From an archaeon (GTDB lineage: Archaea > Nanobdellota > Nanobdellia > Pacearchaeales > GW2011-AR1), in NCBI GenBank assembly GCA_043810775.1, contig JBDRNU010000026.1, positions 4,639 to 68,638 of the forward strand: 64,000 nucleotides of DNA, read 5' to 3'. Each line of letters opens with the position of its first letter. Position 1 is the stretch's first letter. The position numbers were made by a program, and so were the translations under genes. A model generated the notes under the pieces. The model did not search any database. It saw only the letters and a list, made by a program, of their open reading frames with translations, and had not been told where the DNA came from. Below are positions 2,487 to 42,107 of the stretch, in pieces.

Positions 2487-2494
2487 TTTATAAA
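2487..2494 (-). promoter_or_regulatory. TATA-box-like TTTATAAA, putative rpoL promoter (near-leaderless)
   Basis: Palindromic TTTATAAA centred about 25 nt upstream of the rpoL ATG at 2465. The same motif sits at similar distance upstream of other genes here (for example 55666-55673 before aIF1A). Confidence 0.4.
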
Positions 2495-2518
2495 GCTTAT
2501 TGTAGCTGAACATTAACT
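2489..2518. repeat. 30-nt perfect direct repeat, copy 1 (flanks element copy A)
   Basis: TATAAAGCTTATTGTAGCTGAACATTAACT is identical to 2600-2629. Confidence 0.9.
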
Positions 2519-2600
2519 AACTCTATGCAGGGAGTTAATTCAGTGGGCTAATATCTCTGATTTAGTCCCGCTCTTTGGCAACCTTTGGAAAAGGTTGACT
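2515..2600. mobile_element. Hairpin-rich non-coding repeat element, copy A (86 nt; MITE/SINE-like or structured RNA)
   Basis: Starts AACTAACTCTATGCAGGGAGTTAAT and ends AAAGGTTGACT, homologous to 5337-5430 and 41759-41905. Three predicted hairpins and no ORF. Confidence 0.55.
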
Positions 2601-2629
2601 ATAAAGCTTATTGTAGCTGAACATTAACT
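2600..2629. repeat. 30-nt perfect direct repeat, copy 2
   Basis: Identical to 2489-2518. Lies directly after the stop codon (2631-2633) of the upstream minus-strand gene. Confidence 0.9.
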
Positions 2630-3446: not shown

Positions 3447-4106
3447 TTATTTAAGTAAATTCTCCACTTCTTCAACACTCATTAGTTCTGTAATCTGGTA
3501 TTTTTCATCTATCAATAAGCAAGGAACCTCACTAATATTATATTTAGCCATTAACAAATCCAGCGAATCAACTTGCAAGTCAGTTGCAATAGGAATCAGC
3601 AAGATTTCGTTGCCTCTCTTTTCCTTTAAATCAAGAGCAATTTTGGAAAAAACATTTTGAAAAGACTTAGTCTGAATTGGAGTATCCTCATAATCATATA
3701 AATAAACTACAGTATGAAAGCTATCATCACAGTTTTCCTTTATCTTAATGCTATTTACCCACAGCATAGTTCTAAGAATATCATATCTCTTATGGGCAAT
3801 TTTCAGTTCATCACTAATTTTACTGGAAGAATCATAATCCTCCAAAGTTCTGGCTTCCCAGTAAATCCTGTCAGCAAATTCAACATTTTTTTTCACAGCT
3901 AGTTCACAATCAAGATTAAAATCAGAAAATAAGTCACTCTGCAGCCTTAAGTCCATTAAATCTACCTGAGAATCTAAATAAAGATAATCCACTCTCTGTG
4001 TCCTAAAATTCTCAACTAAAGCCCCTATAAGCATTCCAAAGAAAAAAATCAGCATTGCTACTAGTAAAGCCTGCCAAAACACGTGCTTTTGATTTTTAAC
4101 TACCAT
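3447..4106 (-). CDS. Membrane-anchored hypothetical protein
   Basis: 219 aa with one N-terminal TM helix (ALLVAMLIFFFGMLIGALV). Overlaps the upstream GT2 stop by 7 nt. Confidence 0.5.
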   Translation of the reverse strand: MVVKNQKHVFWQALLVAMLIFFFGMLIGALVENFRTQRVDYLYLDSQVDLMDLRLQSDLFSDFNLDCELAVKKNVEFADRIYWEARTLEDYDSSSKISDELKIAHKRYDILRTMLWVNSIKIKENCDDSFHTVVYLYDYEDTPIQTKSFQNVFSKIALDLKEKRGNEILLIPIATDLQVDSLDLLMAKYNISEVPCLLIDEKYQITELMSVEEVENLLK

Positions 4107-5326
4107 TTGTATTTCTTCCTAGCTAGCCTGTAAACTGCAAAAACTAAAAGTATAGGTATTGCAGTTAAATACACTAAAGTATAAAACACAAGGTTAAAAT
4201 AATTTTCCTTTTTCAACTGGTCTTCTTTCATAACCCTTAATGAAAAAAGAGTGAAAAACAATCCAAGAATAAATAGCATTATTCCAAAATAAATTAAAAT
4301 TGAAGGTGTCAAGTTTAAATCCTGCATAGTCAAAATAGCTGTCTGGGCATAAATTGAATAAGAAGTTGAAAGATAAGCTTTTAAAATCCTCTGCAAAAAC
4401 AAGTAAGTAAATAATCCCAGCCCAAACAATCCTAAAAAAAGAGATACAACAAAAAATGGCAGAATAAAATACCCCAGCATGTTTCTCCTGAAAAATATGC
4501 CTTTATACTTATTTATTGTCTGTATTCCACCCATATTCCACCTCACCCTCTGCCTAAACCACTTCTTAAAAGTAGAAGGGGCAGTAGTATAAGTTTTAGC
4601 TGCAAGGCACATCTTTGCCTTGTATCCATTATATACTAAGTGCCAGGTAACCTCAATATCCTCAGTCATATTCTTAGGATCAAAACCTCCAATCTCTCTT
4701 AAAGCTGATGCCCTGTAAATGCTCAAAGGCCCGTTAGTCACATAAACAGAATCCACATAATCCAGCATTTTTCTGGTCCATGCAATCACAGTATACTCAA
4801 AAGCCTGCAAAGTTTCAATAAACTTATTATTCTCCCTGACTAGTATGGAATTTGTAACTGCTCCAACCTTGCTGTCATTAAAAAAACCTATCATCTTTTC
4901 CATTGAGTCTTTCAAAGGATAAGAATCAGAATCAGTAACAGCCATTAGCTCTCCCTTAACTAGCTTGAGTACCTTATTCAAGCTATTAGCCTTTCCCAGA
5001 TTTTTCCCATTATCAACTAGTATCAAATTTTTATACTCTTTTTTTAGTTTAAGTATAATTTCTTTTGTCTTGTCAATAGAGCCGTCATTTATCACAATCA
5101 CTTCATATAAAGGATAAGTTGAGTCAAATACATGCCTGATTGTAGTCTCAATTGTCTCTTCTTCATTATAAGCTGGAATAACTACACTTAGCCTGTATTT
5201 CTTTCTAGCTCTTGGATAATCAAAAAGAGTTTTTCTATTTTTAAGATAAATTAAAATAAAAAAACTCATCATATAAATTCCAATGAACATATACGCTAAA
5301 TATATAATAGTAAGTATCTCTACCAT
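4100..5326 (-). CDS. Family 2 glycosyltransferase, processive-type membrane enzyme
   Basis: VVIPAYNEEETI, INDGSIDKT, TDSD and QRVRW (QxxRW) motifs, plus N- and C-terminal TM helices. Confidence 0.85.
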   Translation of the reverse strand: MVEILTIIYLAYMFIGIYMMSFFILIYLKNRKTLFDYPRARKKYRLSVVIPAYNEEETIETTIRHVFDSTYPLYEVIVINDGSIDKTKEIILKLKKEYKNLILVDNGKNLGKANSLNKVLKLVKGELMAVTDSDSYPLKDSMEKMIGFFNDSKVGAVTNSILVRENNKFIETLQAFEYTVIAWTRKMLDYVDSVYVTNGPLSIYRASALREIGGFDPKNMTEDIEVTWHLVYNGYKAKMCLAAKTYTTAPSTFKKWFRQRVRWNMGGIQTINKYKGIFFRRNMLGYFILPFFVVSLFLGLFGLGLFTYLFLQRILKAYLSTSYSIYAQTAILTMQDLNLTPSILIYFGIMLFILGLFFTLFSLRVMKEDQLKKENYFNLVFYTLVYLTAIPILLVFAVYRLARKKYKW

Positions 5327-5336
5327 TTTGAATATT
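5321..5336. repeat. 16-nt perfect direct repeat, copy 1 (contains the GT2 start codon)
   Basis: TACCATTTTGAATATT is identical to 5431-5446. On the minus strand it reads AATATTCAAAATGGTA, with the ATG at 5326. Confidence 0.9.
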
Positions 5337-5430
5337 AACTAACTCTATGCAGGGAGTTAATGAGGTGAGGTAATATCTTACATCAGTAAGATTTAGTCTC
5401 GCTGTTTGCCAAGCTTTATAAAGCTTGACT
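5337..5430. mobile_element. Hairpin-rich non-coding repeat element, copy B (94 nt)
   Basis: The first 25 nt match copy A exactly. Internal 7-bp hairpin ATCTTAC-ATCA-GTAAGAT and terminal palindrome CAAGCTTTATAAAGCTTG followed by ACT. Confidence 0.55.
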
Positions 5431-5446
5431 TACCATTTTGAATATT
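5431..5446. repeat. 16-nt perfect direct repeat, copy 2
   Basis: Identical to 5321-5336. Confidence 0.9.
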
Positions 5447-5503: not shown

Positions 5504-6061
5504 TTACTGATGTTCGTATTTCTGAGCATCCAAAAAACTCTCAGATTTGCCAGAGTTTTTTTGATTTCCAACAGCAAAATAATCATAAAAATTCTCGCTT
5601 AAGCTCAGCTCCTTAGTCCTTCCAGCTTTCTTAGCTCTTATTAAGCCTAGCTCTGCAAAATTCTTTACATGTTCATAAGCCTTATTGCCTCTAATCTTAA
5701 TAATTACAGACTGTTTAACTGGCTGTTTATAAGCAATAATTGCAAGTGTTTCTTGTTCTGCCCTTGTAAACTCAGCTGAACCAGTAGCCAGCCGATTAAC
5801 CATTTCCATATGCTCCTGCTTAACATCCATTTTCCAGCTATTATCCTTTCTCACAATCTCAATTCCAGAATCATCACTATACTTATCCTCTAGCTTGGAA
5901 ATAATCTCCTTTAACATAATAGGGTTAACATCAGTCAGAGCCACTAGCTCTTGCAAGCTAAGATACCTTCCAGAAATAAACAAGGCTGCCTCTATTTTCT
6001 TCAGGCTGTTAATTTCTATTGCCCTGTCCAAATCCTCATTTGTTTTTTTAGATAAATCCAT
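5504..6061 (-). CDS. scpB: Segregation and condensation protein B
   Basis: EAALFISGRYLSLQELV and ETLAIIAYKQPVKQSVIIKIRG winged-helix repeats typical of ScpB. Confidence 0.8.
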   Translation of the reverse strand: MDLSKKTNEDLDRAIEINSLKKIEAALFISGRYLSLQELVALTDVNPIMLKEIISKLEDKYSDDSGIEIVRKDNSWKMDVKQEHMEMVNRLATGSAEFTRAEQETLAIIAYKQPVKQSVIIKIRGNKAYEHVKNFAELGLIRAKKAGRTKELSLSENFYDYFAVGNQKNSGKSESFLDAQKYEHQ

Positions 6062-41667: not shown

Positions 41668-41758
41668 TTAAAATTAAAGTTTATAGACTTTCCGTTCAAA
41701 CTTCCCGCTTCACCTCCAAAAATAAAAATTCTCGTTCAAATCCAAAAGGCGAACCATT

Positions 41759-41905
41759 AACTAACTCTATGCAGGAAGTTAATGTGGTGAGGTAATATCT
41801 TACATCAGTAAGATTTAGTCTCGCCTCTTCAGAATTCCTTTGAATTCTGAGAGTCGTCAAGAATCTTTGATTCTTGAGATTTGCCAAGCTTTTTAAAGCT
41901 TGACT
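41759..41905. mobile_element. Hairpin-rich non-coding repeat element, copy C (147 nt, extended), abutting tRNA-Ile
   Basis: Same termini as copies A and B (AACTAACTCTATGCAGGAAGTTAAT ... AAAGCTTGACT). A 56-nt internal block adds two extra hairpins. It ends 1 nt from the tRNA-Ile 3' end. Confidence 0.55.
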
Positions 41906-41906
41906 A

Positions 41907-41994
41907 TGAGCCTGCACGGATTTGAACCGTGGACCCCTGCCTGTCTGAGTTTACATATCAGAGCAGTGCTCTAACCTGGCTGAGCTACAGGCTC
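41907..41994 (-). tRNA. tRNA-Ile (anticodon GAU) with a 13-nt intron at the canonical 37/38 position
   Basis: Manual fold: acceptor GAGCCTG/CAGGCTC, D arm GCTC-AGCCAGGTTA-GAGC, anticodon stem CTGCT/GGCAG enclosing 20 nt (7-nt loop CTGATAA plus intron TGTAAACTCAGAC), T arm CACGG-TTCAAAT-CCGTG. Confidence 0.8.
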
Positions 41995-42107
41995 ATAAGT
42001 CTGTAGAAAGCATAAACTCTCAAACTACTACAGGCTCATAAAGAAACAACTTTTCTACCATTTAAAATACTTACGATTATAGAAAAGTAAAAAAATAAAA
42101 GAAAAAG

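Follow-up and report, generated by a model that had tools for sequence, protein, structure and literature searches.

In the 64-kb stretch of DNA analyzed here (the window; contig C26, positions 4639-68638 of genome G000), the start of a family-2 glycosyltransferase (GT2) gene is present twice, in two exact copies of a 16-mer that enclose 94 nucleotides (nt) of non-coding DNA. The enclosed stretch, named copy B, is probably a recent insertion of a non-autonomous element made of hairpin modules and spread by a copy-and-insert process. We infer such a process from the polarity of the element, its long and variable duplications, its lack of inverted ends and the fact that no transposase was found. 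G000 is a metagenome assembly of 995 kb in 26 contigs, about 80% complete, and G001 was the only genome of the same genus available for comparison.

A duplicated glycosyltransferase start

Exact matches to the 16-mer TACCATTTTGAATATT are limited to two sites in the window (5321-5336 and 5431-5446), and no others exist across the whole genome; when up to two mismatches are allowed, the shuffle expectation is a mean of 0.32 matches. The perfect duplication around a 94-nt element described in an earlier note, which was made from the sequence alone, is thereby confirmed as exact and genome-wide unique. Both copies give AATATTCAAAATGGTA when read on the minus strand. Of the two, the proximal one (5321-5336) supplies the ATG-GTA (A at 5326) of an intact open reading frame (ORF) of 408 amino acids (4100-5326, minus strand), which encodes the glycosyltransferase (Pfam PF00535, E 4e-34; also PF13641). 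A total of 1390 GT2 homologs were found, the nearest being 76% identical and the aligned ones 406-415 amino acids long, and the N-terminus M-V-E-I-L-T matches those of the homologs from residue 1, which identifies the proximal 16-mer copy as the real start of the gene. The distal copy (5431-5446, minus strand) holds a decapitated start (A at 5436) that reads ATG GTA AGT CAA GCT TTA TAA, opening a 6-codon stump, MVSQAL* (5436 to 5416), whose stop TAA (5418-5416) lies within the terminal hairpin of copy B. Both the duplication of the ATG and first codons and the dead-end ORF that ends in the element hairpin, as proposed before, are therefore correct, the latter by direct translation. Copy B landed across the first two GT2 codons, and the gene-proximal duplicate keeps the start codon. 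The duplication ends in ATT, the same 3 nt with which the conserved left module of the element begins (ATTAAC...), so that an alternative count of the event is 13 nt from the target and 3 nt of microhomology at the junction.

A family of small hairpin elements

Family alignment, genome census and folding define copy B as an element of three hairpin modules (5334-5430, plus strand), 94 nt long strictly between the repeats (5337-5430) or 97 nt with the ATT shared with the duplication. Module M1 (ATTAACTAACTCTATGCAGGGAGTTAAT; 5334-5361, plus strand), with a 7-bp stem and a 14-nt loop, is the most conserved part of the family: its 28-nt consensus is ATTAACTAACTCTATGCAGGrAGTTAAT, with an invariant stem, and it is carried by 14 copies and still recognisable, although diverged, in copy O. 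It is followed by M2 (5364-5403, plus strand), a long bipartite hairpin with the conserved internal loops TAATA and TTTAG, and by the terminal hairpin CAAGCTTTATAAAGCTTG (5410-5427), a palindromic match to the transcription factor B recognition element (BRE)/TATA consensus of the host. In the general layout of the family, M1 precedes a long hairpin (M2) of either of two types, to which additional hairpins may be appended, and the unit closes with a terminal hairpin (AAsCTTT-loop-AAAGsTT).

A whole-genome census with BLAST and nhmmer gave about 15 non-coding copies of 24-150 nt, dispersed on 7 contigs. Three of them are in the window: copy B itself, copy A (element at 2512-2599 and, with its duplications, 2489-2629, plus strand) and copy C (41756-41905, plus strand), which is 150 nt long, has two extra hairpins and is joined by its hairpin end to the discriminator base of a tRNA-Ile. 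Copies B, C and D are 96-99% identical over M1-M2, which indicates that their insertions are recent. In an alignment of eight copies, 98% of the cells are paired, and compensatory double changes were found at 7 base pairs; shuffled alignments had 1.0 on average, none of 500 attaining 7, and slid controls had 0-1. As for the strand on which a structure might act, all 11 copies tested have a better folding energy on the module strand, on which helix 2 (M2) keeps an invariant U.G wobble, but overall G.U counts are alike between strands (27 vs 26), and the strand evidence for a functional structure is weak apart from that invariant pair. Scanning of the window at Rfam gathering scores returned only tRNAs and no RNA family for the element, and permissive scans of copies B and C gave no family either (best E = 0.3). 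A reading as C/D-box RNA was discarded, as no RUGAUGA/CUGA pair could be seen by eye on either strand. M1 was not found in 40 relatives by a DNA search, nor in pattern scans of public genome and metagenome contigs; among the genomes and metagenome contigs searched, the family was found only in this genome of about 1 Mb, to which it would appear to be restricted.

The two extra hairpins of copy C (41826-41880 in the window) belong to a second modular hairpin repeat family, CTTCAGGAATnnnATTCCTGA plus TCAAnAATCTTTGATTnTTGA, also present in G000 at C8:72-109, C8:3090-3127, C5:4799-4836, C10:25098-25153, C9:5265-5320 and both ends of C22. This other family is located at contig ends, i.e. at assembly breaks, and is also seen upstream of genes in G001 (locus L020) and, as single hairpins, in two further genomes, one of the same family and one of the same order.

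Target duplications and empty sites

About 11 insertions show direct duplications of 7-36 nt, each with a sequence unique to its own locus. In local alignments of the flanks, duplications above the shuffle controls were obtained for copies A (30 nt; 2489-2518 and 2600-2629), B (16 nt), D and G (15 nt each), H (32-36 nt), I (24 nt with 2 mismatches) and O (25 nt with 1 mismatch), and one only just above the control for N (13 nt; 26, where the 95th percentile of the null is 20 and its maximum 28). Copies M and L have repeats of ~10 nt that abut the element and fall below the threshold of the shuffle test, a second insertion at the locus of copy G (G2) has a 24-nt duplication as read from the sequence, and copies C and K, both placed exactly at tRNA ends, have none. 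One process gave about 15 copies with target duplications that range, across the family, from 0 to 36 nt.

Comparison with empty sites in relatives, proposed in the earlier note as a check, could be carried out against G001, which lacks the element at the sites of A, C and K, where the nucleotide sequences can be aligned, and at that of B, where the correspondence is syntenic only. At the site of copy A, the promoter ATAAGCTTTATAAACTAATT and the start of rpoL align, and the element and one copy of the repeat are missing. For C and K the alignment runs up to the last base of tRNA-Ile and tRNA-Lys and resumes after ~155 and ~192 inserted bases, respectively. The site of copy B preserves the synteny of the GT2 gene with that of ScpB; the element is missing, only one start (MVEVLT) is present, and the two genes are 12 nt apart. 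Neither look-ups of identical GT2 and ScpB proteins nor the GT2 homolog search returned strain variants, and with the nearest GT2 only 76% identical there is no population-level empty site for copy B. An alternative view of C and K as ancient tRNA-trailer "master" genes was rejected, since G001 is devoid of both at alignable sites. These sequence comparisons support the interpretation of the 94-nt stretch as one copy of a dispersed element, and of the 16-mer as a target duplication made at insertion.

Junctions and landing sites

The ends of the element have no inverted similarity (ATTAACTAACTC... and ...AAGCTTGACT), and no inverted pair was reported. Instead, its two sides differ. The hairpin-side end is precise, as copies B, C, E and O, read in the gene direction, all begin with AGTCAAGCTT after four unrelated flanks, and the distal copy of the repeat always abuts this end. 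The M1-side junction is ragged and extends from -7 to +31 (+44 in K): M1 and the proximal repeat have 7 nt in common in A, 5 in H and 3 in B, touch each other in M, and are 7-31 extra nt apart in I, G, D, N and O, while K has about 44 extra nt at this side. The extra bases of copy D, GATC-AGTCAAGT, correspond to the start of another unit, the G locus contains two insertions in tandem, and copy L consists of M1 alone. The left flanks have only a loose yTrAwC motif in common. This polarity, together with duplications of 0-36 nt and overlaps at the junctions, is unlike the products of a cut-and-paste transposase and as would be expected of polar copying, through either template switching at short homologies or target-primed synthesis.

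Host promoters were scored with a position weight matrix (PWM) for a 14-mer (AAAGCTTTAAAAAC), built from 19 tRNA promoters of this genome. At protein genes, the first base of the strong matches lies at -34 to -32 from the ATG in 82 of 216 cases, with 18 more at -37 to -35; the sharp peak at -34 validates the matrix, and this clustering implies that mRNAs are mostly leaderless. Over the whole genome, this is a very sharp leaderless-mRNA signature for a DPANN archaeon. Five insertions break the TATA box of a host promoter. The duplications of copies A, G and H end with position 11 of the promoter 14-mer, directly behind TTTAWA; the second insertion at G has its boundary at the same TTTAAA step, and N after position 12. 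The intact promoter stays on the gene side, with 15.2 bits in A (start predicted at the rpoL ATG), 14.8 in H and 13.0 in N, and the 30-nt duplication of copy A holds most of the rpoL promoter. This promoter, TAAGCTTTATAAAC (2466-2520 in the window), has its predicted start on the ATG at 2465, and the insertion of copy A left a second, truncated copy of it (8.0 bits) directed into the element.

Copies C and K are joined immediately after the discriminator of their tRNAs (the tRNA-Ile of C maps to 41906-41995, minus strand), copy D is found 7 nt past tRNA-Thr, and B and I lie within the first 6 and 24 nt of genes, respectively. In 12 of the 15 copies, the hairpin end faces the 3′ end of an upstream gene or tRNA transcribed towards it. 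The next start codon lies between 8 and about 390 nt from the element, and ORFs in the genome are separated by a median of just 32 nt, so that nearness to start codons is forced and does not represent a preference in itself; the earlier suggestion of a preference for insertion within ~30 nt of start codons does not hold. The real regularities of insertion are the breakpoints in host TATA boxes, the breakpoints at tRNA 3′ ends and the strand bias.

Some further features of these sites deserve mention. In B, I and J, an ATG is found exactly 7 nt past the end of M1 (GTTAAT-N7-ATG; window 5324-5333 and, in G000, C3:25733-25742 and C3:42560-42569), which could be an extension of the element, a homology requirement or a shared start context. 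The interval between tRNA-Thr and tRNA-Leu in G000 (C2:48929-49491) spans ~560 nt, against 47 nt in G001, and the extra DNA comprises copy D, a 15-nt repeat of the tRNA 3′ end and an ORF of 116 amino acids without Pfam matches; this DNA may be what is left of a larger integrated element. The tRNA-Ile next to copy C has a 13-14-nt intron, TGTAAACTCAGAC, adjoining the anticodon loop, and its near-identical ortholog in G001 has no intron, which indicates a recent gain or loss within the genus.

Promoters and the fate of the glycosyltransferase gene

The hairpin sequence TTTATAAA of copy B matches the TATA consensus of the host, and the 14-mer CAAGCTTTATAAAG scores 11.8 bits on both strands, a value in the top ~0.01-0.03% of genome positions, in agreement with the earlier description of a palindromic TATA identical to the consensus. 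Among the terminal hairpins of the other copies, that of C reaches 11.9 bits, that of D 9.7 and the rest lower values. For the hairpin of copy B, the predicted transcription starts are near 5392 (gene direction) and near 5445 (opposite direction); the former would give a leader of ~66 nt formed by the reverse strand of M2 and M1, atypical for a leaderless host. The sequence AATAAATTTA (14-mer ATAAATTTAGACTG), which had been put forward as the probable original promoter, has its first base at the right distance (-34), but its score of -0.3 bits, which ranks at percentile 46 among genes and 78 among control positions, is uninformative, and the proposal stands only as to position. Upstream of GT2 lies the gene for ScpB (5504-6061, minus strand; Pfam PF04079 and synteny), and the 12-nt spacer between both genes in G001 suggests an operon; given such a short spacer, co-transcription with scpB would be as probable as an own promoter. 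The GT2 ORF survives, and it would be transcribed either by read-through from scpB, with the stump as an upstream ORF, or from the predicted palindromic BRE/TATA of the element, with the structured ~66-nt leader. As the insertion is recent, an intact ORF is no proof of unharmed expression.

With regard to other promoters of this genome, a conserved block of ~55 nt (..CACCCCTGAGGCATACTCAAGGGAnATACAAAAGAACCGTTAGGTGCTTTTGA) is found directly 5′ of several tRNA genes, where it replaces the usual BRE/TATA: tRNA-Glu (C4:18854), tRNA-Gly (C6:33033), tRNA-Asp (C7:69350), tRNA-Leu (C6:29944), tRNA-Gly (C7:54323) and C11:40010. This block may represent a further repeat family, or else a leader or promoter module common to these genes. 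The tRNA at C11:40010 was called by ARAGORN as an intron-containing tRNA with anticodon TTA, which would read UAA, and may be either a mis-placed intron call or a suppressor-like tRNA.

Mobilization of the elements

A search of the genome for reverse transcriptase (RVT_1) gave a single 15-bit match, below cut-off, in a beta-CASP (aCPSF1-like) RNase, and hence no reverse transcriptase. Searches of the genome for TnpB (PF07282), Y1 transposase and Cas1 (PF01867) had no match, and an all-against-all comparison of its ORFs showed no multicopy ORFs. No related transposase was seen in this 80%-complete genome, in which the DDE, tyrosine recombinase and Rep/HUH families were not scanned individually. 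Overall, these behave as small non-autonomous insertion elements whose mechanism probably does not involve a transposase, and the anatomy of their junctions, which fits no described archaeal transposition mechanism, points to either an undescribed enzyme or a template-switch or retroposition-like form of copying.

A pathway for the spreading of the elements would start with the synthesis of a copy, single-stranded or nascent, that begins at variable positions near M1 and ends at a fixed terminus. The template would be either DNA, with template switching at short homologies, or RNA. The copy would then be joined at two staggered breaks, and the fill-in would make the duplication. Such breaks would favour promoter DNA, at the TATA box of the host, and the ends of tRNA genes, after the discriminator. 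In its strictest form, in which the family spreads without any dedicated transposase, through a polar, RNA- or single-strand-templated insertion aimed at the TATA box bent by the TATA-binding protein (TBP), at the start regions of leaderless genes and at exact tRNA 3′ ends, this proposal is tentative and, in our opinion, rather doubtful.

Several observations weigh against a recent copy-and-insert event as the origin of copy B. Neither a mobilizing enzyme nor an extrachromosomal form of the element was seen for G000, and a transposase, integrase or reverse transcriptase could be encoded in the missing part of this 80%-complete genome, or on a virus or plasmid. The family is carried by one genome only, and therefore offers no presence/absence polymorphisms. 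Polarity is not absolute, as a partial copy beside G has no M1 and copy L has nothing else. The promoter match of the hairpin is strong only in B, C and D (with E, which shares the AAGCTT/AACCTT-type hairpin) and not family-wide, and the breakpoints in TATA boxes could partly reflect the homology of promoter-like element ends to host promoters, instead of targeting. Finally, the flank of copy J matches the 16-mer of B at 15 of 16 positions even though both belong to different subfamilies, so that part of the "target" may be a weakly conserved extension of the element, or homology may be required.

Among the other explanations, a chance repeat or an assembly artefact has a virtually negligible probability, despite an AT-rich genome and a metagenome assembly in 26 contigs, since the 16-mer is exact and locus-unique, about 11 loci on 7 contigs show this architecture, and the reading frame is intact from the proximal copy onward. 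An integrase of the Cas1/casposase type is also very improbable. It would account for three copies at tRNA 3′ ends, for duplications of 13-16 nt in B, D, G and N and for the tandem at the G locus, but the genome contains no detected Cas1 and the elements no terminal inverted repeats, duplications of 0-36 nt are unlike those set by a molecular ruler, and C and K have no duplication at all. More familiar would be a classical MITE (miniature inverted-repeat transposable element), that is, a deletion derivative of an insertion sequence (IS) that is mobilized in trans; the gene for the transposase, of the DDE or another type, would be located in the 20% of the genome not assembled, or else on a virus or plasmid. 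Small, non-coding, multicopy and intergenic units flanked by direct repeats, and an incomplete genome, speak for this explanation; nevertheless, the absence of terminal inverted repeats, one ragged end with microhomology or extra bases, duplications of no single fixed short length, and a genome without multicopy ORFs or matches to TnpB, Y1 and Cas1 make it decidedly unlikely.

Two other explanations concern RNA. The elements could be small structured RNA genes or cis-regulatory modules kept for their function, be it as promoter or leader, 3′-end stabiliser or antisense RNA, with the duplications being incidental. Compensatory changes that maintain two helices, the better folding of the module strand in all copies tested, the common orientation relative to the upstream gene in 12 of the 15 copies, the promoter-like hairpin and the related hairpin modules in intergenic regions of relatives all speak in favour of a function. 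Yet a mobile element that needs hairpins for its copying would be expected to conserve its structure equally well, G.U counts are equal between strands overall, no Rfam match appears even at permissive thresholds, and the orthologous sites of G001, where the family is missing, work without any element, so we consider this option improbable. The alternative of RNA-mediated retroposition, similar to target-primed reverse transcription (TPRT), would explain the precise end as an RNA terminus and the ragged end as the result of variable priming or truncation. It agrees with the variable duplications, with the 3-7 nt of microhomology in A, H and B, with the severely truncated copy L and the transduction-like extra flank in D, G, I, N, O and K, as well as with a conserved RNA-like structure with wobble pairs and two copies located exactly at tRNA processing sites. 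Neither a reverse transcriptase (the best RVT_1 match being the 15-bit one in the beta-CASP RNase of this 80%-complete genome) nor an A- or T-tail was detected, however, and C and K are lineage-specific insertions and hence not ancient tRNA-trailer masters; retroposition in this strict sense is a rather doubtful candidate. A recent insertion through a copy-and-insert process, whatever its template, is our preferred explanation for copy B.

Implications and comparison with known elements

The genomes of DPANN archaea are tiny and densely packed, and few mobile elements have been recognised in them. At almost any position, an insertion into such a genome should disrupt a promoter or a gene start. 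In this family, long target duplications rebuild the promoter or the start codon on the gene side, which lets otherwise lethal insertions survive and yields spare promoters and stump ORFs as by-products. If transcripts were to start at the palindromic BRE/TATA of the element, the family would be a mobile promoter as well. If targeted copying does occur without a transposase, it would represent an archaeal counterpart of retroposon-like, promoter-targeted insertion, and a source from which a minimal genome acquires duplicated promoters and gene starts.

Prokaryotic MITEs are exemplified by the Correia elements of Neisseria and SM1-4 of Sulfolobus. Like them, the elements described here are short, non-coding, multicopy, intergenic, flanked by direct repeats, confined to one lineage and able to place promoter-like sequences beside genes, whereas they differ in having one ragged end and in lacking terminal inverted repeats, a short duplication of fixed length and a related transposase. 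A MITE-like small RNA element of Pyrobaculum calidifontis has conserved inverted flanks and C/D boxes (PMC6009581), neither of which are present in our family. Casposases, for their part, act on short substrates, target tRNA 3′ ends, make duplications of ~14-15 bp and produce tandem arrays, but require Cas1 and inverted ends and keep a fixed duplication length (PMC9939771). Our elements resemble casposons in inserting at tRNA 3′ ends, in having some duplications of ~15 bp and in forming tandems separated by duplicated target, but differ from them in their short size (75-150 nt) and lack of genes, their non-fixed duplications, and the absence of inverted ends and of a detected Cas1. The palindromic elements of the IS200/IS605 type and the repetitive extragenic palindromes with their associated tyrosine transposases (REP/RAYT) also show hairpins near both ends, no inverted terminal repeats, a strand or orientation bias and, plausibly, single-stranded intermediates. 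These systems make no target duplication, adjoin a fixed target of 4-5 nt and need a Y1 (HUH) transposase. The present family, unlike IS200/IS605, has duplications, only the loose yTrAwC motif at the left flank and no Y1_Tnp match in its genome.

In eukaryotes, the Ty3 and Ty1 elements of yeast are long terminal repeat retrotransposons with an integrase and 5-bp duplications that target RNA polymerase III promoters and tRNA genes. The resemblance to them would be one of target choice only, by analogy, as insertions occur at promoter DNA bound by transcription factors and at tRNA genes. A closer similarity is found with the short and long interspersed nuclear elements (SINEs and LINEs) mobilized by TPRT, which share with our family the variable duplications, a precise end opposite a variable one, microhomology, truncation of some copies and transduced flanks and, in addition, the nature of a non-autonomous, structured RNA-like unit associated with tRNA genes; unlike them, the archaeal elements have no detected reverse transcriptase, A-tail or internal tRNA-type promoter. 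To our knowledge, no such retroposons are known in archaea. Taken as a whole, the defining features of MITEs, casposons and IS200/IS605 elements are absent from this family and no reverse transcriptase was found, but the signature of its junctions matches that of retroposons.

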